DNA of 61,899 bases, the filler included. It is 5 parts of 5 records of this genome, joined end to end, with 100 filler letters (N's around TTAATTAATTAA, not from the genome) between each part and the next. Parts side by side here need not be neighbours in the genome. Positions count along the whole stretch, not along the records: positions 56,212 to 61,899 come from SRR31156797_28903; 4 more parts are not named here. One strand, written 5' to 3'. The translations under genes and the position numbers were made by a program. The notes beneath the pieces were generated by a model. It saw only the letters and a program-made list of their open reading frames with translations. It was not told the origin of the DNA and searched no databases. Of the stretch, positions 131 through 61,899 are shown one piece after another. Each line of letters begins with the position of its first letter. The stretch's first letter is position 1.

Positions 131-937
131 TTAACTAACAATTAATCCGGCATAGCCGACAACCTGATTTGTATCACCGCTGGCCTCACCTGAATCGGTA
201 TAACGCACTAACTCAACTTTTTTACTTTTAAGGATTCGAGAGGCAAGCAGAGTTACCACTGTCGGAATAACACCGCACATGGAAATCTGATGTGCATGGA
301 CCGTTTCATACAGTCCCTTGGGGTCAAAAGCCAGCATTTTATCGATGGCCATTTGATCCTGAGCAGATGCCTGCTCTCTTGATTTATAATGGGTCATGTC
401 TGTGGAAGCGACAAGCAGCACCGGTGTGGATATCGCGTTCACAGCAGTTGCAATATCTTTCGCCACCACCTCGCAATCCGCGTAGGAAATGTGTGATACA
501 CAAATTGGCACTATTTTTAAATCTTTCTGCAGGAACTGCAAAAACGGCACCTGCACTTCCAAAGAATGTTCACTGTTATGCGCATCCTCATCTTCAGCGA
601 TGATTGTGGATACCTTTACTAGCTGCGTTGCCAATTCCTGATCAATCGGGACAGGCCCCATGGGCATCTGCCAATCTACAGTCCCCAGGGCAACCGCGGC
701 ACCTCGACCATGGTGATTAGGGCCTAGAATGATAACCGTTTCAGGGACCTGTACGCGGCTGATGGTCACACCTGCTGTTGCTCCAGAATAGACATACCCT
801 GCATGGGGCATGATTACAGCAGTTGCTGCAATTTTCTTGTTCTCATCAACCACAGGGGTGAAGCTGGCAATGGTTTGCTCTAGCTGCGCAGGATCTCCAG
901 GATAAAATTGATTTGCAACGACTGGTTGACGAATCAT
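131..937 (-). CDS. amrB: AmmeMemoRadiSam system protein B (MEMO1 family)
   Basis: Motifs R.PVVANQFYP, PHAGYVYSG, GPNH, EHSLEVQVPFLQ, STDMTHY, SMCG, VVGYA. Confidence 0.92.
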   Translation of the reverse strand: MIRQPVVANQFYPGDPAQLEQTIASFTPVVDENKKIAATAVIMPHAGYVYSGATAGVTISRVQVPETVIILGPNHHGRGAAVALGTVDWQMPMGPVPIDQELATQLVKVSTIIAEDEDAHNSEHSLEVQVPFLQFLQKDLKIVPICVSHISYADCEVVAKDIATAVNAISTPVLLVASTDMTHYKSREQASAQDQMAIDKMLAFDPKGLYETVHAHQISMCGVIPTVVTLLASRILKSKKVELVRYTDSGEASGDTNQVVGYAGLIVS

Positions 938-991
938 GCTCCCTCCTCACGGCGTACCATTACAACTGCAAGCTCAATACAACCAAGCGAC

Positions 992-2452: not shown

Positions 2453-2480
2453 AGGGGAAATGTCGGCTATATTTAGTGTC

Positions 2481-2606
2481 TGTAACTATTCAGCAGTACC
2501 CACGGAGTCTGCGCTTACCTCGATGCACGATCAGGCAGGAAAAGAGAGCGTTACTCTCGTTATCCAGCCTACTTATACGCATGTGGAGCATTACTGAACT
2601 GTTATA
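2481..2606. repeat. MITE/REP-like element with imperfect terminal inverted repeats (copy A, about 125 bp)
   Basis: Left end TGTAACTATTCAGCAGTAC pairs imperfectly with right end GCATTACTGAACTGTTATA; shares an exact 18-mer (2504-2521) in inverted orientation with 3957-3974. Confidence 0.7.
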
Positions 2607-2664
2607 ATATATTTAGTTATGTATAAGACCTGCCGGTAAAAGTGCAATCACCGACATTAGGTTA

Positions 2665-3894
2665 TCATTTGTAATGGTACAGTTTTGCCACCCAATGTAA
2701 CAGAAACAGACCAGGAATGGCAACCACTGTACAGCAAAAGAAAAATCCGGCCCACCCTATTGACTCGGCCATAAAACCTGTGGGGGCGGAGGCAAGTACT
2801 CGCGGGATACCCATCAGGCTCGATAAGAGCGCATACTGGGTGGCAGTAAATTTTTTATTGGTCAGTGATGCCATATAGGCCACATAAGCAGCTGTGCCCA
2901 TACCACCACTCAAATTTTCAAAAGCAATAACCGCTGCCAATCCACTAAGACTGGGACCGATCATGGCAAGGAGAGAAAAACCGGCGGTAGAAATTGCCTG
3001 GAGTATACCAAACATCCAAAGGCTTCTGATAATGCCGGTCCGCAAAATAACAATACCACCAACTAAACCGCCAATAATGGTTGCCCAGAAACCAAATAAT
3101 TTAGCAACAGCGCCTATTTGGGTTTTGGTAAATCCAATATCCAAATAAAAGGGAATGGTCATGGTGGAGGCCATCTGGTCTCCTATTTTATAAAACAGCA
3201 CAAATAACAAAATAAGCAAGGCACCGTTTCTACTAAAGTACTCGACAAAAGGCTGAACCACTGACTCCTGAAAATTGGTTGGCCCAGCTTCCTCCACCCG
3301 TGGTTCTCTCGATAAAAGGGTAGTCATCATGCCAATTCCCAGGCTCGCCGCCATAAACAAATACACCTGGGAAAAAGAAAAGTAATCGGCAAGAATCAAC
3401 CCACCGCTGCCGGCAAGCAGCATACCTACCCTATATCCATTAACATAAAGTGAACTTCCCAATCCCAACTCGTTATCACTGAGATCTTCACGCCGATAAG
3501 CATCGACGACTATATCCTGGGAAGCAGAAAAAAAGGTAACCAAAAGGGCAGCCAGCGCAACCAGCCATGGCGTTTGGCTGGGGCTGGTCATACCGAGAAA
3601 GATCAGGGCACCCATAAGCAGCAGCTGGAACACCAGCAGCCAGCCACGCCTCCTGCCAAGAAACGGTAATGTAAAACGATCCAGGACCGGGGCCCACAGA
3701 AATTTAAGGGTATAGGGCAACCCCACCAGAGAAAAAAGACCGATGACAGAAAGATCTACACCCTCTTCCTTCATCCAGGCCTGGAGTACGGAGAGGGTCA
3801 AAAGCAGCGGCACTCCACAGGAAAACCCCATGAGAAAGGACACCAGCATGCGTGGTGAAAAAATCTGTCTGTGTATGGGGATAGTCATGGCCAT
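2665..3894 (-). CDS. ampG: AmpG family muropeptide MFS transporter
   Basis: GFSCGVP, LPYTLKFLWAP, GRRRGW, SASQDIVVDAYRRE, TATQYALLSS. Start set at ATG 3894 because the upstream GTG lies inside the repeat element. Confidence 0.93.
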   Translation of the reverse strand: MAMTIPIHRQIFSPRMLVSFLMGFSCGVPLLLTLSVLQAWMKEEGVDLSVIGLFSLVGLPYTLKFLWAPVLDRFTLPFLGRRRGWLLVFQLLLMGALIFLGMTSPSQTPWLVALAALLVTFFSASQDIVVDAYRREDLSDNELGLGSSLYVNGYRVGMLLAGSGGLILADYFSFSQVYLFMAASLGIGMMTTLLSREPRVEEAGPTNFQESVVQPFVEYFSRNGALLILLFVLFYKIGDQMASTMTIPFYLDIGFTKTQIGAVAKLFGFWATIIGGLVGGIVILRTGIIRSLWMFGILQAISTAGFSLLAMIGPSLSGLAAVIAFENLSGGMGTAAYVAYMASLTNKKFTATQYALLSSLMGIPRVLASAPTGFMAESIGWAGFFFCCTVVAIPGLFLLHWVAKLYHYK

Positions 3895-3915
3895 TTGATT
3901 GGAAAGAGTGTTTTT

Positions 3916-3998
3916 TGAACTATTCATCAGCACCCCACTGCGCCTGCTTGTACACAGAGGTAAGCGCAGACTCCCTGAAGCACTGCTGAACAGTTACA
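3916..3998. repeat. MITE/REP-like element (copy B, shorter, inverted relative to copy A)
   Basis: Ends GAACTATTCA...CTGAACAGTTACA; about 55 bp resemble the reverse complement of 2479-2537, including the exact GAGGTAAGCGCAGACTCC. Confidence 0.7.
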
Positions 3999-4085
3999 GA
4001 TCAAGAGTAAGCCGAGGATATTTGTTATTCGCCAAAAAATAACATCTTTTTTTCTCAATAGAGATATGAGGTCCGAGAATAATTC

Positions 4086-4868
4086 TCACGCCTCTTTACC
4101 GGCAACAATAAACAGGTGTAATTCCCTTGGACCATGTGCGCCATGGACCATAATTAATTCGATATCACCTGTTTTACTTGGGCCGGAAACCAAAGAAAGG
4201 CAATTGGTCAACCCTAGAGCCTGCTCTTGTGGGTCCCACTTTAAAAGCGTATACAGCTCCTTCAGGTTAGCCAGTAGTTTTTCTTCTTCAATCACCACAA
4301 TATGAATGGCAGGCACCAAAGATACCGATCGAGCATGGCCGGGCCTGCTTCGCATGGCGAGGGTTGCAGTGGCAGCAACAAGGTAATCAGCAGAGGTTAT
4401 CCCGATAAAGGAAGCTTCAACTTTTTCCCTCACCGTTGGCTGTTGCTCAAGGGATGCATCCTTTGCAGCTTGCTCACTTGTTTCTGACTCAGTTATATGG
4501 ATGCTTACCCCATCAAGCTCAGGATCAGATTCCAGGTTTAACCGGCTCAAGAGAGGGTGGTCCCAACGAACGACACTTTTCTCTGTTCCCCATTCTGGAT
4601 CTTTTTCAAGTATAAGCCGACCAATGGCACCTGCAATATCCTCAAGATTTTCCTCAGCATGAAAGTCGATGTGCAAAGGACCTGCTACCTGTTCAATAAC
4701 GGCCCGCAGTTTTTTCTTCTCTGCACCTGACCTTGCCTTTATTCGTTCAAGTACTGCTTCCTGGTCCGGCGAGGCTGCTGTGGTAAAAAGAGCAGAATCA
4801 GCTGGATTTGCCGCCCCTCTTCCCAATGCCTTACCAATGGTTTGGATAAATTCGGTTCGCCTTGGCAT
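4086..4868 (-). CDS. lutC: Lactate utilization protein C (LUD/YkgG domain)
   Basis: GITSADYLVAATAT, RSVSLVP, SGPSKTGDIE..MVHGAHGP; ATG at 4868 overlaps the lutB stop. Confidence 0.88.
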   Translation of the reverse strand: MPRRTEFIQTIGKALGRGAANPADSALFTTAASPDQEAVLERIKARSGAEKKKLRAVIEQVAGPLHIDFHAEENLEDIAGAIGRLILEKDPEWGTEKSVVRWDHPLLSRLNLESDPELDGVSIHITESETSEQAAKDASLEQQPTVREKVEASFIGITSADYLVAATATLAMRSRPGHARSVSLVPAIHIVVIEEEKLLANLKELYTLLKWDPQEQALGLTNCLSLVSGPSKTGDIELIMVHGAHGPRELHLFIVAGKEA

Positions 4869-6307
4869 CACGGTTTTCCCCCTTCTCTTTCTTTCCATCT
4901 CTGCATAAAGGTCTTGGACGCCAAAGGCTTTAAATTTCGATTATTGGTCCAGCCATTAAACGGAAAAGGAAGACGACGGATCATGCCATCTTGTCCAGGC
5001 AAAACCTTCTGCAACACATAACCAATTTTCAAAAAGCCGTCATACACTTTGCGCCGCTGAATAATTTTCTGCCAGCCTTCAAACATGAGCTTTTCCAGCT
5101 TCCCTTTAGGCTGAACATCCCATTTGGCATCTCCCTCAGAGAGCTTTGACCGCAATGCCAACAACATCCTTGGCAGATTAATCTCAAGTGGACATGCCTG
5201 GCGACACGCGCCGCACAAGGTTTCACCTGTGCAAAGGTCAGCAGCATTGTTCACCCCAAAAAGAAGCGGAGTCACCACTGCACCGACAGGGCCTGTATAA
5301 GCTGATCCATACGCATGCCCACCAATTTTTCCGTATACAGGGCAAACATTTAAACAGGCTCCACAGCGGATACAACAAAGCATTTCTCGAAATTCTTCAT
5401 CTGCAAGAATTTTTGATCGCCCATTGTCCACAATAATAAGATGGAAAGCCTCGGGACCATCGCAATGATCAGCAGCTGCAGGGCCACCTATATAACTGAC
5501 ATAACCGCCGATCTGCTGCCCGGCTGCCCCCATTGACATCAACCTGAGGATAGACTGCTGCTCTTCAAGGTTGGCAACAAGCCGCTCCATCCCCATGAAG
5601 GCCACATGCACTTTCGGCAAGGTAGTGGACATCCGGATGTTTCCCTCGTTAGAAACCGTTGTAATATGTCCGGTTTCTGCACAGGCTAAATTGCATCCAG
5701 AAATGCCCATATCAGCCGTAAGGAATTTCTGGCGCAGCGCCTTACGTGCATCATAGGTTAAAGTGGGCGGATCTTCAGTATAGGGTGTACCAAGTTTTTC
5801 GGAAAAGAGTCTGCCAACTTGCTGCCTGGTCTTATGAATGGCAGGAGCAACAATATGGGTTGGCTTTTCGCCTGCAAGCTGGATGATGAATTCACCAAGA
5901 TCGGTTTCGGCAACATCAATGCCCGCCTCTTCAAGGGCATGATTGAGGCCGATTTCTTCGGTGACCATGGATTTCCCCTTAACCACCTTTTTCACATCTT
6001 GGCTACGGGCTATGGCTAGGCAGATGTCTACAGCGTCCTTATCAGTTGCTGCAAAATGCACCTGGCCGCCGTTTTTATGGATATTATCAGCCAGGGTTTC
6101 CAGAAGGATATCTAAATTATCGATTGCCTTGCGCCGGTACCCATGCGCTGTCTTTCTCAGTTCCTGTCCTTCCGGGAGGTTCTGGTAAAGGGTCTGGGTC
6201 GCTGGCCCGAGCCGGGACTGGAGACTTTCCAGTGCAGACTGCAGCACTGGGTCAGCAATGGAGCCGCTTGCTACTTTTTTATACTCTGCTGAGGTAATTT
6301 CACTCAT
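4868..6307 (-). CDS. lutB: L-lactate oxidation iron-sulfur protein LutB/LldF
   Basis: KGKSMVTEEI, ETDLGEFIIQL, NEGN, CIRCGACLNVCP and CGACRQACP ferredoxin motifs; likely start MSEITS at 6307. Confidence 0.93.
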   Translation of the reverse strand: MSEITSAEYKKVASGSIADPVLQSALESLQSRLGPATQTLYQNLPEGQELRKTAHGYRRKAIDNLDILLETLADNIHKNGGQVHFAATDKDAVDICLAIARSQDVKKVVKGKSMVTEEIGLNHALEEAGIDVAETDLGEFIIQLAGEKPTHIVAPAIHKTRQQVGRLFSEKLGTPYTEDPPTLTYDARKALRQKFLTADMGISGCNLACAETGHITTVSNEGNIRMSTTLPKVHVAFMGMERLVANLEEQQSILRLMSMGAAGQQIGGYVSYIGGPAAADHCDGPEAFHLIIVDNGRSKILADEEFREMLCCIRCGACLNVCPVYGKIGGHAYGSAYTGPVGAVVTPLLFGVNNAADLCTGETLCGACRQACPLEINLPRMLLALRSKLSEGDAKWDVQPKGKLEKLMFEGWQKIIQRRKVYDGFLKIGYVLQKVLPGQDGMIRRLPFPFNGWTNNRNLKPLASKTFMQRWKEREGGKP

Positions 6308-7040
6308 AACTCTTCCCTGCAAGAAGTTGGGCAATATGCATCACCTTTACCGGTGATTTCTTTCTACTCAACATCCCCTCAATATTCATAAGGCAACCCA
6401 TATCACAGCCAGCAACGACATCAGCTCCTGAGGCGATAATATTATTGACCTTGTCTTCTACTAGCGCTTCCGAAATCTCAGAATATTTGACCGCGAAGGT
6501 ACCGCCGAACCCACAACACTTATCCGCATCCTTCATCTCAACCAGTGTCATATCATTTATATTGGCAAGCAATGATCGCGGCTGTCTGTCTATATCCAAA
6601 AACCGGTTAAGATGACAAGACGCATGATAAGTGACCTTGCCATTAAATCGTGCGCCGACATCTTCAACACCCAGCACATCCACTATATACTCGGTAAACT
6701 CAAAGGTCCGCTCACCGACAGCCTTAACACGAGCAAGCATTGCTGGCTCATCTCTAAACAGGTCCTGATAATGATTCCTTACCATATTCACGCATGATCC
6801 GGATGGTGAAACAATCGTTTGCGCATTCTCAAACAGGGTTAAAAATTTTTCTGCGGCAGCACGCGCAACCTTCTGATGCCCTGAATTAAAAGCCGGTTGC
6901 CCGCAACAGGTTTGATCGGTGGGACACTCAACATCAAGGCCAAGCCCTTCAAGCACATCAACCATGGATTCAGCAACTTCCGGATACATAGTATCCACAA
7001 TACACTGCACAAAAAGGGTGACGTTATCTTTTTTCTGCAT
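6300..7040 (-). CDS. lutA: Lactate utilization protein A (two CCG domains)
   Basis: QTCCGQPAFNSG, SGSC, YHASCH, CCGFGGTF, DMGCLMNI. Confidence 0.93.
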   Translation of the reverse strand: MQKKDNVTLFVQCIVDTMYPEVAESMVDVLEGLGLDVECPTDQTCCGQPAFNSGHQKVARAAAEKFLTLFENAQTIVSPSGSCVNMVRNHYQDLFRDEPAMLARVKAVGERTFEFTEYIVDVLGVEDVGARFNGKVTYHASCHLNRFLDIDRQPRSLLANINDMTLVEMKDADKCCGFGGTFAVKYSEISEALVEDKVNNIIASGADVVAGCDMGCLMNIEGMLSRKKSPVKVMHIAQLLAGKSYE

Positions 7041-51760: not shown

Positions 51761-52147
51761 TCAGCTGTATTTTTTATAACTTGCAAGGAACTCGATAAAT
51801 AAAATCGAAAACAGCAGGTCCACAACGCCCGGGCCGATCAGGAGCAGGGAAATATTGCCGGACAGGGCGGCCCAGGTCAGTCCGACAAATACGACAATCT
51901 TGCCGACAATGCCCAGTTTGACAATGGCGTGATTTTGGCCCAGGTCCATCGACACCCAGAAATAGCCTACACCGAAGAGAAAGGCCAGGGCCAGGAACAA
52001 AAGGAAAAACACCGGGTACACCGGAAGCTTCATGCCGAAAAGGGGGAAAATCAACTTGTACCCCAGGGCGAATGACAGCGTGGCCGCCCAATTCCAGATC
52101 GCCCCGATGAAAAACATTTTTCTATAGTAGGATGCCTTGGGAATCAT
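51761..52147 (-). CDS. Small 4-TM membrane protein
   Basis: Four hydrophobic helices; likely start MIPKASY, just after the thiolase stop. Confidence 0.7.
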   Translation of the reverse strand: MIPKASYYRKMFFIGAIWNWAATLSFALGYKLIFPLFGMKLPVYPVFFLLFLALAFLFGVGYFWVSMDLGQNHAIVKLGIVGKIVVFVGLTWAALSGNISLLLIGPGVVDLLFSILFIEFLASYKKYS

Positions 52148-52176
52148 TGATAACTCCTTTACGGATGATCCGATTC

Positions 52177-53415
52177 TTATGCTTTTTCCAGAATATGGAT
52201 GCACATGGCTGCTTCTTCCACTCCTATGTTGCCCCCGCCGTTTTCAGCCAGGGCGATACGGGCGCCTTCAACCTGCCTTTTACCGGCCTGGCCTCTCAGC
52301 TGCTCCACAAGTTCGTAAATCTGGGCCAAACCCGAAGCCCCTATGGGGTGGCCGCGGCATTCCAAACCCCCGCTGGTATTGATGGGCTTTGAACCGCCCA
52401 GGGTTGTGGCCCCGGATTCGGCAAACGGCCCTCCTTCGCCGGCCGGGCAGAAGCCCATGACCTCGGTCTGGTGCAACTCGCCGTACGCGGTGGCGTCATG
52501 CAGTTCCGCCAAATCAATATCATCCGGGCCGAGCCCCGCCTTTTCATAAGCCTGCTTGGAAAGCCGTTCGCCTATATCCTCGCCGTCCATATCCCGTTCC
52601 GCGCCCTGGCCCATTATTGAAGCGCGAATTTTTATCGGCCGGGCGCCGGTCAGCTTTTTCAAAAAGTCCTCCGAGCAGACGATTGCCGCTGCGGCGCCGT
52701 CCCCGACAGGGGCGCACATGGCCCGGGTGAGGGGATAAGCCACGGCCCGGTCCGCCAGTATCTGTTCAACGGTCATGGGCTGCTGATACTGGGCCAAAGG
52801 ATTTAGTGAACCATGGTAATGGTTTTTCGAACTGATGACCGCCAGGTGCTGCTGGGTCGACTTGAACCGGTCCATATGCCAGCGGGCCATCATGGCGTAC
52901 GCATCCATGAAAATGCTCCGTCCCTGGCCGGGCGCCGACTCGCCTTCCGGGAGCTCTACTTTAAAGGACTGGCCCATCTCCATGAGCATGTTGATATGCG
53001 GTTCGAAGTTTTCAACATCCATGCAATAGGCATACGCGGCCAGGGATTTGGCTTTGTCCGGGCTGGTGATCTTTTCCGATCCCACGGCAATGGCCACCTC
53101 GAACATGCCGGCCCTTATGCCTGAATACGCCAGATGCAAGGCAGTGGAAGCGCCGGCGCATGCGTTTTCCACATTTGTGACCGGAATCCGGTCTATGCCC
53201 ATACTGCGGAAGACAACTTGCCCCCTTATGGAATGCTGGTTGTCGAACATGCCCCAGAAGGTGTTGGAAAAATAACCGGCCTGTAGATCGGCTTTTTCCA
53301 ATCCCGCATCCTGAAGGGCCTGGTTAATAACTTGATGAGCCATTGAGCGTACGGAATCATCCGGATACTTGCCGAATCTATTCATTCCCACGCCGATAAC
53401 ATAAACGTCTTGCAT
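52177..53415 (-). CDS. SCP2-type thiolase family protein
   Basis: NVENACA, C.PVGDGAAA, ELHDA, GHPIGASG, ENGGG. Confidence 0.92.
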   Translation of the reverse strand: MQDVYVIGVGMNRFGKYPDDSVRSMAHQVINQALQDAGLEKADLQAGYFSNTFWGMFDNQHSIRGQVVFRSMGIDRIPVTNVENACAGASTALHLAYSGIRAGMFEVAIAVGSEKITSPDKAKSLAAYAYCMDVENFEPHINMLMEMGQSFKVELPEGESAPGQGRSIFMDAYAMMARWHMDRFKSTQQHLAVISSKNHYHGSLNPLAQYQQPMTVEQILADRAVAYPLTRAMCAPVGDGAAAAIVCSEDFLKKLTGARPIKIRASIMGQGAERDMDGEDIGERLSKQAYEKAGLGPDDIDLAELHDATAYGELHQTEVMGFCPAGEGGPFAESGATTLGGSKPINTSGGLECRGHPIGASGLAQIYELVEQLRGQAGKRQVEGARIALAENGGGNIGVEEAAMCIHILEKA

Positions 53416-53471
53416 AGGTTTCTCCTGGAATGCCCGGGCCGATAATTGATCGCCCCGTTCGTTTTTATTCT

Positions 53472-54665
53472 TCAGGTTTTGGGCAGCCCCTTAACATAAC
53501 ATTTTAAAGGCATGTCATTCACCAAAGCCCCAACGCATTTGTTACAGGATTCGCATGCTGCTTCCGTGGTTTTGCCTTCCTGGATTCTCTTGACCAGAAA
53601 AGGCTCGCGAATGAAAGGCCGGCACATGGAAATAAGATCGGCCTGGCCGTTTTCCAAAACCTGCTCCATGTGCTCCACCCGGCGCATGCCGCCGACCAGG
53701 AAGAGCTTTGTCTCGCCTATTACCGGCCTCATCTTTTGGGCGTAAGGCAGGTTCCAGGCTTCTTCAAAATCGAATTTGCCGACCATGCCCTTTAATACAA
53801 CCCAGGCCAGGGGCTTCTGCCACATGGGCAAGGGCCTGACAAACTCGCTGACCGGCACCTCGCCCCGCCACATGTGCATGTTGGAAAAAACTGTTGTACC
53901 GGTAGTGAACTCCAGGCCGTCGACTCCCAATTCGGACAGCCAGCCCGCGTATTTCACGGCCAGGTCAGGAGTAATTCCATCTTTGGGGGTAAAGTCATGA
54001 GCATTAAGCTTCATGACCAATGGCATGCCTTCGGGCATATGCTTCCGGGCCGCCGATACTATTTCCTTTACAAACCGGAAGCGGTTTTCATCCGACCCTC
54101 CCCAACTGTCGGTTCGCTGATTCAGATAGGGCGACAGAAACTGGTTGGGCAGGTAACCCGCCCCGGCGCTGATGTGGATGCCGTCAGTACCGGCTTCCAC
54201 GGCCCGCCGCGCCCCTTGGCCATAGGCTTCAATCACTTCATTTATTTCGTCTTCGGTCATTTCCCTGGGCTTGACCATGTACATGGGGTCACGGCCGACG
54301 CTGGAAGGCGCCATTGGCTGGGCCCCGATATTGTCTTTAGTTGTTTGCCGGCCGGCGTGAGCCAGTTGAAAACAGGCCAGCGACCCATGCTCGTGTATTG
54401 TATCGGCAAGGCGGGTCAGGCCGGGAATCATGTCATCGCTGTGGATGCAGGTCTGGTGGGGAGTGGCTTTGCCCATAGGGTGAACATTCATATAACCGGG
54501 TATGATAAAAGCAACCCCGCCCCGGGCGATATTTTTGTACCGGTCGATCAGTTGATCGGTGACCCGGCCTTCAGAATCAGACATGCATTCGTACGTGCCG
54601 GCATGGACAAAACGGTTTTTGAGCTCCAAGCCTCCAACTTTTTGGGGTGTAAACAGGATGGACAT
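53472..54665 (-). CDS. NADH:flavin oxidoreductase (Old Yellow Enzyme family)
   Basis: LKNRFV, QLAHAGR, GYL.NQFLSP..N.RTD.WGG, RPFIREP, CESCNKC. Confidence 0.92.
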   Translation of the reverse strand: MSILFTPQKVGGLELKNRFVHAGTYECMSDSEGRVTDQLIDRYKNIARGGVAFIIPGYMNVHPMGKATPHQTCIHSDDMIPGLTRLADTIHEHGSLACFQLAHAGRQTTKDNIGAQPMAPSSVGRDPMYMVKPREMTEDEINEVIEAYGQGARRAVEAGTDGIHISAGAGYLPNQFLSPYLNQRTDSWGGSDENRFRFVKEIVSAARKHMPEGMPLVMKLNAHDFTPKDGITPDLAVKYAGWLSELGVDGLEFTTGTTVFSNMHMWRGEVPVSEFVRPLPMWQKPLAWVVLKGMVGKFDFEEAWNLPYAQKMRPVIGETKLFLVGGMRRVEHMEQVLENGQADLISMCRPFIREPFLVKRIQEGKTTEAACESCNKCVGALVNDMPLKCYVKGLPKT

Positions 54666-54693
54666 AGGACCTCCGTTATTTCGGGCTGAGTTA

Positions 54694-54715
54694 GGGGCCT
54701 GAAAGCTCAGGCCCC
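54694..54715. terminator. Intergenic stem-loop
   Basis: GGGGCCTGA-AAGC-TCAGGCCCC, no clear U tract. Confidence 0.5.
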
Positions 54716-54748
54716 ATAAAGTCCATGTTTGGCGACTTCTAATTCTCC

Positions 54749-55996
54749 TTAATAGGGCATGCGGGGATAGGTCTCGATAATCTTGTGCCCTGCGGCAATG
54801 GCAAGGGTCTGGTTGGAACCGTCCTCAATCAATGTAGCCCTGGCGTCCCGGAACAGTTTTTCTATCAAGTATTCCTTGGCCAGCCCGTTTCCGCCGAATA
54901 TCTGAATGGCTTCATGAGTATTCTGAAACGCGGCTTCAGTGCCCTGGATCTTGGCGAAAACAGAATACTCTTCCGCGGGCATTGACGTATTCTGGTTGTA
55001 AATGTACGCAGCCCTGGTGATCTGGCGGGCGACTTCAACTCTCCTGAGCATGTGGAACAGGTTCATCTGGATGTGGCTGTATTCGATCAGCGGTTTGCCT
55101 CCCTGGACTCGCTCCTTGGCATAAGAAAGCGATTCCTCGAAAGCGGCCCTGGCTATTCCGGATCCAAGCGCCCCCATGAGACAGGTCGTGGCCGAAAGCG
55201 TAATCTCAAGCATAGCCTCGTACGCTTCAGGCCCGGCCACCAGGTACGATTCGGGAACACGTACGTCGTCAAAGAAAATTTCGCCCTGGTTCAGGTCCCG
55301 CTGGCCCAACTTGTTGAGAGGCTTGCCCTTGGATACGCCGGGTCGGTCCAATGGAACGATGAATATGCCGCTGCCGGCATGCCCCATGGATGGGTCTACC
55401 TGGCAGTACAGGGCGCAATGGGTGGCAATAGTCCCGCCGGACACCCAGGATGACTTCTGGCCGCTGATAATGTATTCATCCCCTTCACGGCGGGCTCGGC
55501 AGTTAGCCGGAATGCCCGAATCATGAAAACTCGGATATCCTGGAATCAGAGTGTCCGAACCGTGATCCGGCTCGGTGATGCCCCAGCAGCCCCGTATGCT
55601 TGCATCTCTGCACTCGCAAAAGGGCACAATGATGTCATCGATGATATCGTCTTCAGGCACCATGCTGGCTATAAACGCTGGAAAAGCGCAAACCGCCAGT
55701 TGAACGGCCATGCCGGCGCTGCCCCAGCACAGTTCTTCAAAAATTATGACCTGTTGTAATGAAGTAAGGTCCATGCCGCCGTACGATTCCGGGATCAGAA
55801 TGGTATGATAACCCAACTCATATGCCTGTTTGAGAAAATCCCACATCGGGGAGCCGTCGGCAATGACTTCTTCCGGCGACATTTCGTCAAGTTCCTTGGC
55901 TATGGGCCGCATCACCTCTTTGGCGAATTTATGGGCCGCTGTTTTTAATGCCAGGTCGTCCTCATTAAGATTAAGGTCCAGGTCCAGAAAATCCAT
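54749..55996 (-). CDS. Acyl-CoA dehydrogenase
   Basis: ITEPDHGSD, GQKSSWVSGG, KLGQR, R.QGGKPL, QIFGGNG, FRDAR...IEDG. Confidence 0.95.
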   Translation of the reverse strand: MDFLDLDLNLNEDDLALKTAAHKFAKEVMRPIAKELDEMSPEEVIADGSPMWDFLKQAYELGYHTILIPESYGGMDLTSLQQVIIFEELCWGSAGMAVQLAVCAFPAFIASMVPEDDIIDDIIVPFCECRDASIRGCWGITEPDHGSDTLIPGYPSFHDSGIPANCRARREGDEYIISGQKSSWVSGGTIATHCALYCQVDPSMGHAGSGIFIVPLDRPGVSKGKPLNKLGQRDLNQGEIFFDDVRVPESYLVAGPEAYEAMLEITLSATTCLMGALGSGIARAAFEESLSYAKERVQGGKPLIEYSHIQMNLFHMLRRVEVARQITRAAYIYNQNTSMPAEEYSVFAKIQGTEAAFQNTHEAIQIFGGNGLAKEYLIEKLFRDARATLIEDGSNQTLAIAAGHKIIETYPRMPY

Positions 55997-56027
55997 TTTG
56001 TCCTCCTAAAACGGTATAACGGTGTGG

Positions 56028-56111
56028 TTATTCTTCTTTCTTATACCGGGCCTCGATCTGGTCGGCGTACTTGACGACGATTTCAGGAATCTGTTCGTAC
56101 AGGATCGTCTG
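56028..56111 (-). CDS. C-terminal fragment of an unidentified upstream gene
   Basis: Open frame QTILYEQIPEIVVKYADQIEARYKKEE* co-oriented just upstream of the acyl-CoA dehydrogenase. Confidence 0.55.
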   Translation of the reverse strand, partial: QTILYEQIPEIVVKYADQIEARYKKEE

Positions 56112-56211
56112 NNNNNNNNNNNNNNNNNNNNNNNNNNNNNNNNNNNNNNNNNNNNTTAATTAATTAANNNNNNNNNNNNNNNNNNNNNNNNNNNNNNNNN
56201 NNNNNNNNNNN
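56112..56211. other. Artificial contig junction
   Basis: N spacer with TTAATTAATTAA. Confidence 0.98.
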
Positions 56212-56389
56212 CTGGACCATCAAAGAAGCCTTGCTCAAATACCGGCGCACCGGTTTAAAGAATTCTGCAAAAAAAATTGAATGGCTGGATGAAACACTGT
56301 ATGAAAATCATGACCTCATTGATGACGTTCTAGTAAAATCGTACCGCCGGGATAAAATTGTTTTTTCGGTGGTCTTTCCATTTTTATAG
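56212..56389 (+). CDS. 4'-phosphopantetheinyl transferase, C-terminal fragment
   Basis: Own translation from 56213: WTIKEALLK...TGL, matching the WTxKEAxxK signature; stop at 56387-56389. Confidence 0.75.
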
Positions 56390-56504
56390 CCTGTTTAAGA
56401 ACGGTTCCCAAGTTTTTTATGATCTCTTGTGAAAATATGCTGCGAAATCATACGATTATGATTGCAATTGTGAACTGCTTTTATACCGCCGGGTAAAAAA
56501 GTGT

Positions 56505-58004
56505 TTAGGATGGGTTGGCAAGCCTTCGGGATCTGTCTGAAGAAATTTTATATTTTTTGAGTATGCGTGTATTGGATTTTTCGACAGCCTGTCGGTTTAA
56601 AACAATTTTGAATCCTCTGATATCTTCTATAAGGTGATAATCCTTTTTACAGTTTTCAAAAGCTGCGATCAGATCCAGGAGAGTGACAATTGGTCTGCCG
56701 TTTACCTTGACAATGATGCCGTTGATAAATTGGTGGTAACCTATATTGACATCGTCGGGCAGCACCTGGGCCAGCATAACGACTTCCTTTTTGTTTTTTT
56801 GAGGTCTGCCGTTGTAAAAAAGATTGATCAATTCTGTGGGGGCATTCAGGTGAAAATTACTGCCTGACCCATATTCATAAAGATAGTTCAGGGTCAGGGA
56901 CTCAAAAACCAGGCCGCCAATAATATAAAATGAGGGTTCTGTATTATACTGTCTGTAAGGCACCAGGCGGCAGCAGTGCATGGAGCGTGTGAGGGGTATA
57001 TCAATGATGATGGGCCTACCCTGTCTGAGCACTTTTATTGAAACAGTATCGTTGATCTGTTTTTGTTGAACTGAAAATCCAAGATAGGTTCGTTCACCTT
57101 TGCGAAATTCAATGGTACCGTCATTATCAATATCATTGTTGTCTATGCTTAGCAGTATGTCGTTGATTTCCAAATACCCAATGGCTGGTGAATCCGGATA
57201 GATGGCATTGATCAGGACACCGGTCTGTGAATCCTTCATCTTGTAAAATATTCTCATATCGCTATTCTCAAGTTTCTGCATGGATACACCAAGTTCCGGT
57301 ATACCGTCCAAGCGGTTGTCTGAAATATCCTTGAGAAAACGTTCAATCACGGGGACAGGAATCATGTAACCGATATTTTCCAACTCAATACCGTAGGCAT
57401 TCTGGAAAGCGATGCCTACGATTTTACCATCTTTGAGTACCGGACCGCCGCTGTTTCCATGGTTGATGGAAGCGTCAAGCTGGCAGGCAATCAGATATGC
57501 ACCGCTGTGTTTATACTCTTTATGTTCCACGCGGGATACCACTCCTTTTGTGATGGACAATTTATCTCCGCCTTCGGGAAACCCATAGGCATAGACTTCA
57601 TCTTTGATATGGGAAAAGTCGCCTAATTCCAATGGGACTACACCTTTGAAAAACGTGGGGTCATTTACCTTGAGCAGTGCCAGATCGCTTTTATGATCTA
57701 TCATGTCCACAACTGCAGTATAGCGTTTAGCTTGGCCGGTTTTGCGAATCTGTAAAAATGTGTTATCACAAACCACATGTGCATTGGTTAAAATTTTGTT
57801 TCCTTTGATGATAACCCCTGAACCATGCCTTGAAGCAATGCCCTTCATCTGCCACGGCTCGTGATAGTTGTGCTCACTGAATACCACATATATTTTGACC
57901 ACAGTGCTTTTTTCATCTGTTGCAAATCCGGTGGCCGGGGATAAAAAAGAAAATAGAAAAATCAAACATGGGATGAAATTGAAAAGGCAGTATATCTGTT
58001 TCAT
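56505..58004 (-). CDS. Secreted Deg/HtrA-type serine protease (trypsin plus PDZ domains, Deg2/Deg9-like)
   Basis: Signal peptide, LTNAHV, DLALL, GNSGGP, two PDZ-like regions. Confidence 0.92.
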   Translation of the reverse strand: MKQIYCLFNFIPCLIFLFSFLSPATGFATDEKSTVVKIYVVFSEHNYHEPWQMKGIASRHGSGVIIKGNKILTNAHVVCDNTFLQIRKTGQAKRYTAVVDMIDHKSDLALLKVNDPTFFKGVVPLELGDFSHIKDEVYAYGFPEGGDKLSITKGVVSRVEHKEYKHSGAYLIACQLDASINHGNSGGPVLKDGKIVGIAFQNAYGIELENIGYMIPVPVIERFLKDISDNRLDGIPELGVSMQKLENSDMRIFYKMKDSQTGVLINAIYPDSPAIGYLEINDILLSIDNNDIDNDGTIEFRKGERTYLGFSVQQKQINDTVSIKVLRQGRPIIIDIPLTRSMHCCRLVPYRQYNTEPSFYIIGGLVFESLTLNYLYEYGSGSNFHLNAPTELINLFYNGRPQKNKKEVVMLAQVLPDDVNIGYHQFINGIIVKVNGRPIVTLLDLIAAFENCKKDYHLIEDIRGFKIVLNRQAVEKSNTRILKKYKISSDRSRRLANPS

Positions 58005-58109
58005 TTTAACCTTTTAGGCCTCATGCATAAAACTGAGCCTTCCAAGGAAAAATTTCAAGGTCAGCTCATCAGGTTGCAAAAACGAAAAGTGGGAGTCAAA
58101 AAGTTTATA

Positions 58110-58406
58110 TCATTTGATATTTAGAAATTGTTTTTTTAGTTGATTCTTAAATGTAACGGATTTCTCGTTGGATTTCATCAGGCGGCTGAATACCGTTTTG
58201 GTTTCACCGGTGGCTGTGTCAATGACAAAGGCGCCGACCAGTGCCCCGCCATCAACAGGGGATGTGGCCCATGATTGAAGTTGAAATCGCCCGTAATTAG
58301 GTGGAGGAGGCGAATTAATCGCCCCTATAAACAATATACAGAACAGAGTTACTGCAATACCCAGAATAAAAAATTTTATTTGGGAATTGTGAAAAATTGT
58401 TTTCAT
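58110..58406 (-). CDS. Small membrane-anchored or secreted hypothetical protein
   Basis: N-terminal hydrophobic helix, GRFQL, FVIDTATGET motif. Confidence 0.7.
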   Translation of the reverse strand: MKTIFHNSQIKFFILGIAVTLFCILFIGAINSPPPPNYGRFQLQSWATSPVDGGALVGAFVIDTATGETKTVFSRLMKSNEKSVTFKNQLKKQFLNIK

Positions 58407-58445
58407 TATTTGCTGTCTCCCGCACCAGCGTTTATCAGGTTATTT

Positions 58446-59195
58446 TTATTGACTCTTGGCGAAATCGTCTTCCTGGGCACCAAACCCCTGGACCTCAATC
58501 ACCTGTCCCGCGATACCGATTTCTTTGCCGAGTATGGCAGTCGCATCTGCTACATTAAGGATCATGGTCATGTATGCATCACCGTTTTTCTCCCATCCAT
58601 GGTCCGATACCTCGGCAAGGTAAAGCGTTGCCAGCAGCTTGGTTTTAACAATATCGGATTTCAATATGAAGTTTTCAATACTTGTCTTCGATTCAACTTT
58701 CATACCCACAATACGCCTGGCAAGTTCGAGATAGGCGTTTATTTCTGCCGCCCTGAGTGCGGCAATGGCACCGGCACTGGAAGCTGTAGATGTCCCGTAA
58801 CCTACCCGTTTAAAAATTTTGTTCTGCAGGTTCATATGCTCTCCGTCGATGTTTTGAATGCTGGGAAGCTGAACCTCGGCCTCGACTTTGGCAATGTCCT
58901 TTTGGGGATCATAGGAGATACTGGTAAACTGGATATTATTTATAAACGCTTCGGTTTTGGTCTCGGTAACACTTTGATACTTCGCTGCAATCATGTCCAT
59001 CACTGATTCCGACGCCCTGATTTTAAGTCCATAAACGGATTCTACAAGGGAACGAGAGGCTTGAATTTTTGCCGCCATAATGCTCATCAAGCGTTTGTTG
59101 CCTGCCCAGGCAGAGGGAATGCACCCTAACAGGAAAATTACCGAGACTATCATAAATAAACAGGTTTTATTTTTTTTATTTTTAATCTGCATCAT
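58446..59195 (-). CDS. Exported protein with two LPP20/FlgP-like domains
   Basis: Internal duplication: AAKIQASRSLVESVYGLKI and RAAEINAYLELARRIVGMKVESKTSI; signal peptide with possible lipobox LLGC. Confidence 0.75.
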   Translation of the reverse strand: MMQIKNKKNKTCLFMIVSVIFLLGCIPSAWAGNKRLMSIMAAKIQASRSLVESVYGLKIRASESVMDMIAAKYQSVTETKTEAFINNIQFTSISYDPQKDIAKVEAEVQLPSIQNIDGEHMNLQNKIFKRVGYGTSTASSAGAIAALRAAEINAYLELARRIVGMKVESKTSIENFILKSDIVKTKLLATLYLAEVSDHGWEKNGDAYMTMILNVADATAILGKEIGIAGQVIEVQGFGAQEDDFAKSQ

Positions 59196-59548
59196 TCCAT
59201 CTCTATCTTTAGGGTTTGAGTTTTAATCTGATTAGCATTTTTTTGTTTTGTTGTTTTTATTGGCGACTCTGATGTCGGGGTCATGTCAATTTGTTTTTCA
59301 ATGATTTTTACCTGTGGGTCGTTGCTGCTTTCTATGACAATGGCTTTGTACTTTACGGTGCCGCTTTGGGGGATATCGGGAAAACCGCTGACAATCTCTT
59401 TATTCACCTTATCCAGGTCTTCTACCCGATTTTCGACATGTTTTTTATTTCCTGCCCAGTCAAGGGAAGGAAATAAGAGGGTACCCAAAAAAATACAGGC
59501 ACTAATGAAGCCCATCAGGCAGATGTTTTTTTTACCAGTCATCATCAC
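59192..59548 (-). CDS. Small exported hypothetical protein
   Basis: Signal peptide ending in WA; overlaps both neighbouring genes (translational coupling). Confidence 0.7.
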   Translation of the reverse strand: MMMTGKKNICLMGFISACIFLGTLLFPSLDWAGNKKHVENRVEDLDKVNKEIVSGFPDIPQSGTVKYKAIVIESSNDPQVKIIEKQIDMTPTSESPIKTTKQKNANQIKTQTLKIEME

Positions 59549-60911
59549 TTAACATCCTGCCGATTCCGGCACCTGCCTTAATGCCAGGCTGGGACCTGGG
59601 CTTAGGTTTGGCGTGTGCGGTGGGTTTGGGTGCTGGTATCTGGGGAATTGCTGCCGACTGGGTCTCTGCCGGCTTGGGTTCAGGTGTCGCTGGTACTTGG
59701 GGTTCAGCAGGTACATACTTGGGTGTTTCCACAATAACCTGGGAGGCTTCTTGGTTTACATATTCCTGGCCGGATGCCAGTATAGTATTCAACTGGTTCC
59801 GCCTGGCAAGGGTAGACTCATCAATGGGAATATCAGAATAGATTTTCATGAATGTGTCAAACCCGATGACACTTGAACCAGGCGTAAATTCTGGGTCAAT
59901 GCCCTGAAATGCCGCTTGGGTCGCCGGATCAATCCGGCCGGTAAGGTAGACTTCATGCCCGTAAAGATATGCCCATTGCTGGGCCGCCATAATCCGTTCA
60001 GTATCGTCGATGCTGTAATAGTATCGTTTGATCTGCTTGACCACAACTTTATCCGGTTTTGTATCGTCACCAAGGAGTTTCCAATAGGGAAGTGCAAGGT
60101 ATTTTCCCACCATCTGGATCATGCTGACTTGAACCAGCACCCTTACGGCTGCATGTCTGCCCTGTACCTTTTTAATAGAGCCTTTTCTGCCGAAGGTGGG
60201 GCCAAACAGCGTTATACCGAATTCTTTTTCCCTTAATCCTTTACGGACTTCCATGCTGTTCACCGTATTCATTCGGGGTATTCCGGCCATGGTTTTAAAG
60301 TCGAGCATATTAAAATCTAAGGTAATTCTGGCAAGTCCCTGTTTTCCTGAATTGCTGTAGTCTAGTCCAACAGAACTGCTTGGGGTCCAACTCGGGGCAT
60401 TGGTGAAACTTGCTTCAACACCGAAATCCGTGCCGTCCCCACGGGTTTCAAGACCCCTGTCAAATTCAGTGATGCCGCCGCTAATGACGACCTCCGGAAT
60501 CAATTTTTCTGAAAAATCGGAGTACCCTGTGACATTCATGTTCTGTATGTATGCGGGATCATAGGGAATATATTTTATATATCCGCCGATTGAGTTCAGG
60601 GTACTTTTTAAAATTTCGGTAATATCCCGCGGTATTTCGCCGCCTGTTGATCTTGCGGTTCCTGTATTATCACCCACAGGATCACTTTGAATTTTAAGCT
60701 CCCCGGTATCGAAAATTTCCGTCATTAAACCCAGGTCGTTCAAGGTTTCTGTGTAAGACGTCAGTTTAACTTCAGGTCCTGTTTTTTCCAAAGTGATATC
60801 CACATTTTTAGGATCCACAGAAGATACACACCCGGTCAGTGTTGTCCCGATAAACATCACACACAGCACTTGAGCCACCCAGTTCTGCAGACCTAAAAAA
60901 AATTTAATCAT
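59532..60911 (-). CDS. CsgG/HfaB-like lipoprotein with peptidoglycan-binding-like segment and Pro-rich tail
   Basis: Lipobox LTGC; D.TG, ISGGITEFD, two predicted beta-hairpins, ITLDFNMLD..T, AAVRVLV; later Q..(Y)G...TGRIDPATQAA; start ATG 60911. Confidence 0.72.
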   Translation of the reverse strand: MIKFFLGLQNWVAQVLCVMFIGTTLTGCVSSVDPKNVDITLEKTGPEVKLTSYTETLNDLGLMTEIFDTGELKIQSDPVGDNTGTARSTGGEIPRDITEILKSTLNSIGGYIKYIPYDPAYIQNMNVTGYSDFSEKLIPEVVISGGITEFDRGLETRGDGTDFGVEASFTNAPSWTPSSSVGLDYSNSGKQGLARITLDFNMLDFKTMAGIPRMNTVNSMEVRKGLREKEFGITLFGPTFGRKGSIKKVQGRHAAVRVLVQVSMIQMVGKYLALPYWKLLGDDTKPDKVVVKQIKRYYYSIDDTERIMAAQQWAYLYGHEVYLTGRIDPATQAAFQGIDPEFTPGSSVIGFDTFMKIYSDIPIDESTLARRNQLNTILASGQEYVNQEASQVIVETPKYVPAEPQVPATPEPKPAETQSAAIPQIPAPKPTAHAKPKPRSQPGIKAGAGIGRMLSDDDW

Positions 60912-61188
60912 TTTTATCCCCAATTTGACCTCAATTAATTTATTTTCAAATTGCTTCAGCACGCTTTCATCTATTCAGGTATGATTTCGTAACCAGGGGA
61001 AATGAGTATCTGGATCCGTCCTGACGGCTGCTAAGCGACTTGGAAAAAATAGATACCATATATTTTGAGCCGAATTTTTATTGGTATTCAAGGCGCGACT
61101 CAGGAGAACGTGTTGAATATCCAGGGTTTTACGCTGAAGAATACGGATAAAAATCAAGTAAAATAGGAGGATTATTGTCTCCTCACCC

Positions 61189-61545
61189 CTAATCTGCAAC
61201 CAGCGTTTTGTCGCCCTTGCTGTCGTCAATGATAATAATATCACCTTTAACTGTGGATCCGGCACCCATGACTACACTGTTCATGTTGGCCGATCCAGAC
61301 CCGGACCCGGAAGCGTTTGAATCCCCAAGGCCTTCGCCGCTTTTTTTCATAACCATGGCTTTGCTTTTTGCATTCATTTTAATGAATGTAACATTCCGGT
61401 CTTTTTTCCCCAGTTGATCCCAATTTTTGATGCCGTCGTCAGTGTAATTTGATATTCCGTCGTCAAGGTCATCACTGAAACCAGTACACGGTACGGCTGC
61501 CGAAACCAGAAAAAACATAGCGATAATACTTAGTATGAATTTCAT
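61189..61545 (-). CDS. Small secreted protein with one degenerate copy of the upstream repeat
   Basis: RBS AAGGAGG before ATG 61545; signal peptide; acidic N-terminus, Gly/Ser linker, SANMNSVVMGAGSTVKGDIIII. Confidence 0.8.
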   Translation of the reverse strand: MKFILSIIAMFFLVSAAVPCTGFSDDLDDGISNYTDDGIKNWDQLGKKDRNVTFIKMNAKSKAMVMKKSGEGLGDSNASGSGSGSANMNSVVMGAGSTVKGDIIIIDDSKGDKTLVAD

Positions 61546-61647
61546 TTTAAATACCTCCTTATAATCCAAGGCTATCAGTTTTAGGTTATAAAGGGAATTT
61601 TTTTTTGTTGCAGCATCAGTCTTTGATCTGCCCGACTGATATCGATC

Positions 61648-61697
61648 AGGGTTCAGCAGTCCGTTATCAATAACTTTGCTGCTGAACCCTTTTTTTT
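61648..61697. terminator. 12-bp stem-loop between the repeat-protein gene and the accessory genes
   Basis: AGGGTTCAGCAG ... CTGCTGAACCCT; the T tract is on the plus strand only. Confidence 0.7.
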
Positions 61698-61727
61698 CAA
61701 TTAAAAACCTGTCTGATGCCTGTGAAA

Positions 61728-61899
61728 CTATTCAATATCCACAGATCCCATGTTTGCCGTATTGTCTTTGCCGATGGCGATATTTGCTGCATTTTTTACA
61801 TTGGATTTATTGATGACAGCGCCCTTGACTTTTGAATCCTGTATATTCACAGACCCCATGTTTGCCGTATTGTCCTTGCCAATGGCAATGTTAGCGGCA
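61728..61899 (-). CDS. C-terminal fragment of a 36-aa tandem-repeat protein (amyloid or beta-solenoid like); missing from the ORF track
   Basis: Own translation AANIAIGKDNTANMGSVNIQDSKVKGAVINKSNVKNAANIAIGKDNTANMGSVDIE*; 108-nt period; 17 identical aa with 7 synonymous differences. Confidence 0.85.
   Translation of the reverse strand, partial: AANIAIGKDNTANMGSVNIQDSKVKGAVINKSNVKNAANIAIGKDNTANMGSVDIE

Follow-up and report, generated by a model that had tools for sequence, protein, structure and literature searches.

A conserved locus joining a 36-residue-repeat protein to a CsgG-superfamily lipoprotein, and its possible role as a curli-like envelope machine

Does a cluster of genes that pairs a secreted repeat protein with a CsgG-like lipoprotein encode a new system for building fibres at the cell surface, or do its products serve another purpose in the envelope? 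The question is raised by the end of a 61,899-nt stretch of joined genome parts (the window), where the part taken from record SRR31156797_28903 carries seven minus-strand open reading frames (ORFs), all co-oriented, at 56505-61898; these had been recognized in a preliminary description of the stretch that proposed a candidate functional-amyloid or fibre secretion system, and they are present as described. In gene order they encode the repeat protein REP, a small secreted protein (sm126), the lipoprotein G, a second small secreted protein (p118), an LPP20-like protein (L20), a small anchored protein (p98) and a Deg/HtrA-family protease (Deg); the 5' part of REP and anything upstream of it lie outside the window. 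The answer offered here, on which our belief and our doubt are evenly balanced, is that the locus encodes a curli-like (type-VIII-like) envelope machine that exports REP and holds it as a beta-solenoid polymer on the cell. Gene content, gene order, conservation, signal-peptide-like N-termini, repeat architecture, predicted folds and the co-occurrence of a C-terminal tail of G with L20 are what the analysis shows.

Gene order and carriers of the locus

Relatives of G are numerous (886 at E ≤ 0.001 in a word-indexed protein set), and when one genome per species was scanned, 190 stretches encoding one were found. The best 80 of these are the loci studied here, with G proteins 46-69% identical to that of the window (best match 68-69%); the genome from which the window comes is not represented among them. 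The seven window proteins were mapped onto the six-frame ORFs of these loci and all ORFs were clustered; neighbour counts therefore refer to six-frame ORFs, not to curated gene calls, and presence is expressed relative to loci extending far enough to contain the gene in question (for REP, at least 2 kb upstream). One order is common to nearly all 80 loci: [long REP] REP - sm126 - G - [p118] - L20 - [p98] - [DUF2807 protein] - [Deg], where brackets mark members that are not constant. Given this recurrence, the arrangement is far beyond chance. REP is found in 58 of the 60 loci with at least 2 kb upstream (72/80 of all loci), the synteny of repeat gene and pore gene that had been named beforehand as a test; sm126 is found in 74/78 loci and L20 in 65/73. 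Departures from the order are few and partly shared: sm126 does not precede G in eight loci (L030, L035, L049, L056, L058, L063, L067 and L071), REP lies downstream of G-L20-p98 in five of these (L030, L035, L049, L056 and L067), where it is accompanied by sm126 in four, and REP is missing from two loci with at least 2 kb upstream (L058 and L071). L20 is missing in eight loci.

Membership of the last two genes had been considered less certain, and the counts separate them, p98 being frequent (48/70) and Deg occasional (19/63); p118 is present in 36/75 loci. Three additional recurrent neighbours with signal-peptide-like N-termini, none of them within the window, are a DUF2807 beta-helix protein (34/68 loci; DUF2807 is a 'putative adhesin head' family), a small protein designated C8 (24 loci) and a FlgT_N/LpoB-like protein, C10 (10 loci). 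In the window, all six complete proteins begin with a basic and then hydrophobic N-terminus corresponding to a signal peptide, lipobox or membrane anchor, as had been stated; such calls were made by eye from the N-termini, in window proteins and orthologues alike. The DUF2807 protein and C8, together with the peptidoglycan-binding-like domain of G and the tail-L20 co-occurrence presented below, go beyond the preliminary description.

Most carriers belong to Thermodesulfobacteriota (Desulfobacteraceae, Desulfobulbaceae, Desulfuromonadaceae, Geobacteraceae and others), and the window G itself clusters with those of two Desulfospira genomes on the G tree (support 100/99; 85% domain identity). Beyond this phylum the locus occurs in Nitrospirota (nine loci), one member of Sulfurospirillaceae and one of FCPU426; its earlier attribution to sulfate reducers was thus too narrow, given also the Desulfuromonadaceae and Geobacteraceae among its carriers. 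One locus (L042) lies on a 2396-bp contig titled Promethearchaeota archaeon, and its G nests within a Thermodesulfobacteriota clade on a very short branch; for this reason mis-binning is a likelier explanation of the contig than an archaeal copy of the locus.

The repeat protein and its small partner

Only the last 56 residues of REP are encoded in the window, but orthologues offer the full protein. REP ORFs that are complete at the 5' end consist of a signal-peptide-like N-terminus followed by repeats only, which span the mature protein from the cleavage site to the last residue with no capping domain at either end and no anchoring domain. In full-length orthologues the period is 36 or 72 (74/38 or 35/70 in some groups), in line with the 36-residue repeat read from the window fragment; a signal peptide on the full-length protein had been proposed as a test of the reading, and the N-termini have the look of one. 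Lengths range from ~165 to 1515 residues, corresponding to ~4 to more than 40 repeats, and each repeat keeps the same invariant positions (Ser, Gly, Asn, Asn, Ala, Gly, Ala, Met, Gly). Two adjacent REP ORFs occur in ~27 of the 80 loci, typically a long and a short paralogue, although some pairs are pieces of one gene. The window fragment matches the REP of L002 at 71-80% identity in several repeat registers (tblastn); Tandem Repeats Finder reports no repeat in it because only 1.5 copies lie within the window.

When the REP of L002 (274 residues) was modelled with AlphaFold2 (AF2) using 13 relatives, the result was a regular all-beta solenoid with an identical strand pattern in every repeat (predicted local distance difference test, pLDDT, 92.1; predicted template-modelling score, pTM, 0.86; 250 of 274 residues at or above 90), in agreement with the beta-solenoid anticipated for this protein. 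Searched against the PDB, the model gives no match at E ≤ 0.001, and its weak neighbours are beta-helices of many kinds, including adhesins, antifreeze proteins and polysaccharide lyases (template-modelling scores, TM-scores, of at most 0.26). No Pfam stretch above cut-off was found in eight full-length REPs, nor any match of Curlin_rpt at E ≤ 1. The ESM Atlas returns unnamed clusters with a best score of 0.86 and low recognition, and a word-index search with full REP returns 16 matches among 7999 scored candidates, all unnamed or 'hypothetical', a number that is no guide to family size.

Several known identities were considered for REP and rejected on the basis of the Pfam scan, the PDB structure search and the comparison with CsgA. 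For a pentapeptide-repeat identity, which would entail a quadrilateral beta-helix of five-residue period, two long REPs score 30-32 bits in Pfam over the whole protein, but no single stretch passes; the NCBIfam score is 41 against a 125-bit cut-off, the period is 36 and not 5, and the TM-score to pentapeptide structures is at most 0.26. A curlin identity fails for want of both a Curlin_rpt match and CsgA similarity, and a bactofilin-like identity was likewise rejected.

Directly 3' of REP, the stem-loop that had been reported between REP and sm126 in the window is real, and a hairpin stands at this place in 70 of 70 loci scored, its sequence varying and its place constant. The best 60-nt minimum free energy (MFE) after REP has a median of -31.05 kcal/mol, with 93% of loci at -24 or lower, as compared with a median of -18.8 kcal/mol both for random windows (24% at -24 or lower) and after G (10%). 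On the gene strand the window hairpin is preceded by an A-run and followed by no U-run, although a U-run follows several hairpins of other loci; read on the + strand, the window hairpin (61649-61699 in this reading) resembles a canonical intrinsic terminator. Given these properties, the window hairpin may act in both directions, or its role may lie in RNA stability and not in termination. A hairpin so placed would fit a major subunit that is strongly expressed while read-through is attenuated.

The protein encoded after the hairpin, sm126, is composed of a signal peptide, a near-invariant acidic motif (GDLDDGIS) at the mature N-terminus, a Gly/Ser-rich linker and a conserved C-terminal unit, and matches no Pfam or NCBIfam family. 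Its C-terminal unit aligns with the core of the REP repeat (hhalign E 0.007, 21 columns, 48% identity), which lends weak support to the earlier proposal that sm126 carries one degenerate REP repeat.

The lipoprotein G, its partner L20 and the layout of the locus

In the window and in 80 of 80 orthologues G has a lipobox Cys after its signal sequence, followed by a CsgG-like domain of 251-256 residues (80/80 orthologues; mean column identity 75%). That this protein is a CsgG-like lipoprotein, as was first proposed, is borne out by fold and not by family score. Pfam CsgG (PF03783) gives 16.7 bits on the window G against a gathering threshold of 20.8, and touches 24 of 30 G family members (best E 9.3e-5), whereas a Foldseek search of the AF2 model finds 32 matches at E ≤ 0.001, among them FlgT, CsgG, PelC, the LPHT ring (8z5n), HpaA and GNA1162 (4hrv); the CsgG chains (4uv2, 6l7c, 6l7a and 4uv3) match at E 7e-5 to 2e-4 with probability 1.0 and target TM-scores of 0.36-0.45. 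Searches of G against PDB sequences with phmmer and with a profile gave no true match; ribosomal protein L19 was hit, but through low-complexity sequence only. With a profile of the domain, 523 of 1.84 billion representative clusters are reached at E ≤ 0.001, and 7 of 58 distant relatives scanned pass the Pfam CsgG gathering score (best P0333, 34.1 bits). Because relatives of intermediate distance pass this threshold, G is placed as a divergent branch of the CsgG superfamily. The C-terminal modules of the 58 distant relatives include DUF4384 (16), PG_binding_1 (6) and TPR or Sel1 repeats (5); since distant relatives (P0335-P0407) differ in these modules, the CsgG-like domain may serve as a base to which a variety of periplasmic adaptors is joined.

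Two conserved amphipathic insertions with hydrophobic/polar alternation interrupt the domain, at residues 178-203 and 248-264, and both are of low confidence in the monomer model, as expected for membrane hairpins. In hhalign alignments that are themselves weak, residues 178-203 are set on the TM1 hairpin of CsgG. Following the domain, residues 301-400 are helical and modelled at pLDDT 81-96 per ten-residue block, and Pfam PG_binding_1 matches 10 of 30 G family members (best E 9.8e-5).

The conserved tail that ends G is present in 65 of 65 loci with L20 and absent in 8 of 8 without it. The eight loci lacking both sit at two separate places on the G tree, and thus at least two independent events tie the tail to L20; this pattern suggests that the tail contacts L20. 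The PDZ domains of Deg are disfavoured as its receptor, as 46 tail-bearing loci have no Deg nearby.

L20 had been described as a tandem LPP20-like protein, and the tandem stands because profiles of its N- and C-terminal halves match each other (hhalign E 3.5e-6, probability 87.6, 97 columns), profiles being needed in that BLASTP between the halves finds nothing. Family assignment is less complete: Pfam LPP20 (PF02169) matches only the C-terminal half of the window protein, and below threshold (E 6e-4, 20.6 vs 25.9 bits). Among six L20 orthologues, five match at E ≤ 0.1 and only that of L015 passes the gathering threshold (26.4 bits). The nearest ESM Atlas cluster is named 'LPP20 lipoprotein domain-containing' (score 0.96; 64% of members with PF02169). 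The predicted mature N-termini of L20 and p118 both open with AGNK, conserved across loci, a motif that the two may share as a signal for recognition or processing, or through partial duplication. Neither p118 nor p98 matches a Pfam or NCBIfam family. The Deg/HtrA assignment holds above Pfam cut-offs (Trypsin_2 87.4 bits, PDZ_2 36.3, PDZ_3 149.7), with the triad H76/D107/S185 kept in 21 of 21 sequences; the protein falls below every NCBIfam equivalog cut-off and is not the equivalog of DegP, DegQ or DegS.

Table 1. Features of the locus, in gene order (positions along the window)
Feature	Position	Strand	Description
REP, 3' end only	61728-61898	-	56 residues, ~1.5 copies of the 36-residue repeat, then stop codon; 5' end open
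Stem-loop after REP stop codon	61649-61689	-	11-bp G+C-rich stem; best 60-nt MFE -26.4 kcal/mol
sm126, small secreted protein	ORF 61189-61569; likely 61189-61545	-	118 residues from ATG 61545
Weak terminator-like hairpin directly 3' of sm126 stop codon	61167-61184	-	Consensus scan only
G, CsgG-superfamily lipoprotein	ORF 59532-60962; likely 59532-60911	-	459 residues from ATG 60911; 476 from GTG 60962
G, lipobox Cys and CsgG-like domain	60063-60830	-	Residues 45-300, GTG numbering
G, helical peptidoglycan-binding-like domain	59763-60062	-	~Residues 301-400; from model and Pfam PG_binding_1
G, Pro-rich low-complexity linker and conserved C-terminal tail	59535-59762	-	Tail end G-R-x-L-x3-[DE]-W
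p118, small secreted protein	59192-59548	-	No family match; in 36/75 loci
L20, secreted, two LPP20-like domains	58446-59195	-	Pfam LPP20 below threshold; profile match between halves
p98, N-terminal membrane anchor and conserved periplasmic part	58110-58406	-	In 48/70 loci
Deg/HtrA-family serine protease	56505-58004	-	Signal peptide, trypsin-like domain, PDZ_2, PDZ_3

Two pairs of neighbouring genes overlap (Table 1), p118 overlapping the G stop codon by 17 nt and L20 that of p118 by 4 nt. The true start of sm126 is likely the later ATG, which has AGGAGG upstream, and that of G is likely also the ATG, which matches the start in orthologues. Between sm126 and G is a gap of 277 nt (60912-61188), in which the weak terminator-like hairpin lies; an ORF overlapping this gap (60975-61265) is probably not a gene, and G may have a promoter of its own. 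Across the locus (56001-61899) the G+C content is 0.40-0.45, as compared with 0.54-0.55 in the co-oriented, metabolic-looking ORFs downstream (52001-56000), which are separated from it by a gap of ~500 nt (56004-56504); the low value could be caused by Asn/Lys-rich coding or by horizontal acquisition.

Other surroundings vary by clade. A second module, C15 - C10 - C20, in which C15 and C20 have no family match, occurs in L036, L043, L045, L062 and L072, and in L036, L045 and L062 an extra REP copy directly precedes it; the module could be a paralogous set of assembly genes or an auxiliary one. Just upstream of the locus (300-6400) in L001 and L002, which are the relatives closest to the window, are genes for a dCache histidine kinase and for response regulators, of which one contains CBS domains; these are possible regulators of the locus. 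In one Desulfobacterales clade (L009, L014, L018, L022 and L029) secA is located a few genes upstream of the long REP, where it is probably a mere housekeeping neighbour.

Readings of the locus and comparison with known systems

The curli-like machine would work as follows. REP would be made in excess, the hairpin after its gene attenuating transcription or stabilizing the message, and would pass the inner membrane via Sec and the outer membrane at an oligomeric ring of G. G would be held in the outer membrane by its lipid anchor and tied to peptidoglycan by its second domain, and its C-terminal tail would couple it to L20. Outside, REP units would stack end to end, a step proposed because the repeats fill the whole mature protein with no capping domain. 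With one repeat-like unit and an acidic N-terminus, sm126 would act as primer, cap or anchor, in the manner of CsgB/CsgF; p118, p98 and, elsewhere, the DUF2807 beta-helix protein would be periplasmic accessories, and Deg would clear misfolded subunits as quality control. Export across the outer membrane, pore formation, polymerization and all protein-protein contacts are the part of this model that we infer.

A number of results weigh against it. With regard to G, the AF2 model is of moderate quality (pLDDT 67.7), TM-scores of its fold matches are low (0.2-0.45), and the top Foldseek match is not CsgG but FlgT (3w1e, E 3.6e-5), with PelC, HpaA and GNA1162 also matching and none of these being pores; FlgT and PelC are ring lipoproteins. 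Direct profile matches to E. coli CsgG are weak (E 0.0045, probability 7.7; E 0.0028, probability 11), the second in a test whose power is low because the CsgG profile alignment is shallow (the best 120 matches to E. coli CsgG listed are all at least 83% identical). The CsgG constriction loop is described as a Phe clamp followed by Asn/Tyr rings in the portion of the paper drawn on here (PMC4594475). As judged from the weak hhalign alignments, G does not keep the constriction Asn-Phe, its loop is five residues shorter, and a D-x-T-G motif next to the constriction is the sole part common to both proteins there; the second hairpin, at ~17 residues, is short for a membrane span. With regard to REP, hhalign comparison with E. 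coli CsgA amounts to no similarity (E 0.22, 9 columns), no similarity to any amyloid family was found, and a confident model of the monomer says nothing on polymerization; the resemblance of sm126 to the repeat is itself weak. The terms functional amyloid, fibre and pore are accordingly interpretations placed on the locus. Finally, a scaffold in the periplasm would also accommodate a peptidoglycan-binding domain together with an LPP20/FlgP-like partner and a protein of HtrA type.

Such a scaffold, attached to the outer membrane and involving no secretion, is an unlikely but credible alternative. Beneath the outer membrane, G and L20 would assemble into rings or discs stacked on one another, in the way of FlgT/FlgO and FlgP at flagellar motors, and REP would be a periplasmic beta-solenoid organized or tethered by the rings, serving envelope stiffness or the spacing of outer membrane and peptidoglycan. 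The rank of FlgT in the Foldseek list and the match to the LPHT ring comport with this arrangement, as do the LPP20-like nature of L20, the peptidoglycan-binding-like domain of G and its lack of the CsgG Asn-Phe, the inner-membrane anchor of p98, the periplasmic location of all accessory proteins judging by their N-termini, and the FlgT_N/LpoB-like C10 of 10 loci. However, G keeps two amphipathic insertions at what appear to be the positions of the CsgG membrane hairpins, for which PelC chains (132-158 residues) are too short; its relatives reach Pfam CsgG above threshold and not FlgT_N; no flagellar genes are among the named recurrent neighbour clusters; and the pairing of a repeat subunit that lacks caps and is presumably strongly expressed with a single-repeat partner of its own follows the logic of a secreted fibre.

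In another reading REP is secreted but does not polymerize, being displayed or released via G as a monomeric adhesin or as a mineral-, polysaccharide- or ice-binding surface whose length is set by repeat number; we regard this as quite unlikely. Soluble beta-solenoids are usually end-capped, whereas REP has a cap at neither end; nor does it have an anchoring domain of its own, and a conserved partner with exactly one repeat-like unit is hard to explain on this basis. A monomer would be in keeping with the wide spread of repeat number, which is common in adhesins, with the adhesins, antifreeze proteins and polysaccharide lyases among the weak structural neighbours of the model, and with the frequent adjacency of the 'putative adhesin head' DUF2807 protein. 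That the genes are chance neighbours, or that the REP ORF is not a real gene, is excluded, as nothing beyond the absence of database names speaks for it and it is opposed by the same order in 80 loci across phyla at G identities of 46-69%, by the invariant Gly, Asn, Ala and Met of the repeats and by the overlap of neighbouring genes at stop and start codons.

If REP forms surface fibres, the locus supplies an unannotated matrix or adhesion polymer in abundant sediment anaerobes (Desulfobacteraceae, Desulfobulbaceae, Desulfuromonadaceae and Nitrospirota), which would bear on aggregation, on attachment to minerals and partner cells and on biofilms, including corrosive ones, and would widen the range of roles of CsgG-type lipoproteins. 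REP is in addition a new scaffold, a predicted beta-solenoid without caps whose repeat code is simple and to which no solved structure is close, and the locus yields a defined gene set (REP, sm126, G and L20). A more specific proposal, which we advance tentatively and with rather more doubt than belief, is that the locus represents a third independent Gram-negative class of fibre assembly beside curli and Fap: a beta-solenoid subunit of 36-residue repeats would be exported and polymerized on a peptidoglycan-tethered ring of a CsgG-superfamily protein, with a single-repeat primer and a stabilizing tail-LPP20 link, and would be widespread in anaerobic sulfate-, sulfur- and metal-reducing sediment bacteria and Nitrospirota. 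A keyword search of the open-access literature, with subscription journals and supplementary tables outside its scope, found no description of the operon.

Among known systems, Pseudomonas Fap (FapC, FapF, FapD) resembles this locus in the approximate length of its subunit repeat and in having a protease within the operon; it differs in that the outer-membrane component here has a CsgG fold and is not a FapF-type barrel, and in that Deg is an HtrA-type serine protease. In agreement with the earlier impression that no CsgE, CsgF or Fap component is recognizable, none of these families is matched at E ≤ 1 by the seven window proteins or eight REPs in Pfam, no direct profile comparison with Fap proteins having been made. 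Profile searches summarized in the consulted portion of a 2025 review place curli or Fap operons in Desulfobacterota and Nitrospirota (PMC12822426). REP matches neither the curli nor the Fap family.

The outer rings and discs of flagella share with this locus a toolkit of folds, namely a FlgT/CsgG-like lipoprotein, an LPP20-like protein and an HtrA-like protein: FlgP, of the LPP20 family, acts with FlgT/FlgO in the flagellar outer rings or discs, and PflC of the Campylobacter flagellar disc system is HtrA-like. They differ from it in that no flagellar genes accompany the locus among its named recurrent neighbour clusters, its Deg has kept the catalytic triad, and its constant partner is a repeat protein that is secreted.

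CsgG-like proteins are widely spread, according to the part of the NanoporeDB account used here (PMC13397529). The sections drawn on from a preprint (bioRxiv 10.1101/2021.05.19.444899) describe as uninvestigated a widespread three-gene cluster of the CsgG/HfaB family with two lipoproteins (GNA1162/DUF799 type) that affects poly-N-acetylglucosamine (PNAG) and pili in Acinetobacter; those sections mention no repeat-protein substrate for it, in which respect it differs from the present locus. The two are alike in placing a CsgG-family lipoprotein beside small lipoproteins of TolB-N-like fold, and GNA1162 (4hrv) is among the Foldseek matches of G.

The Caulobacter holdfast anchor HfaA/HfaB/HfaD is likened to this locus by description only, both having a CsgG-like lipoprotein and the former amyloid-like surface proteins; it differs in that Hfa anchors polysaccharide. 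To our knowledge the Hfa locus contains no 36-residue-repeat protein or LPP20-like partner. HfaB, a CsgG-like lipoprotein, is required for the placement of matrix-anchoring, amyloid-like surface proteins, as stated in the excerpt consulted (PMC6707917), and because it places these Hfa proteins, relatives of CsgG evidently serve substrates other than curli.

Curli is the closest known system in logic. The differences are considerable: REP is unrelated in sequence to CsgA and has a repeat of 36 residues versus ~20; G, which scores under the Pfam threshold for CsgG, has no Asn-Phe constriction and is extended by a peptidoglycan-binding-like domain, by a Pro-rich linker and by a conserved tail; and the accessories are LPP20-like, p118, p98, DUF2807 and Deg proteins, with no CsgE, CsgF or CsgC. 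What the two share is the plan of a Sec-exported repeat subunit, here a predicted beta-solenoid, a second small protein that, as CsgB does, appears to share the repeat, and a predicted outer-membrane lipoprotein that has the CsgG fold and insertions that seem to coincide in place with the membrane hairpins of CsgG.

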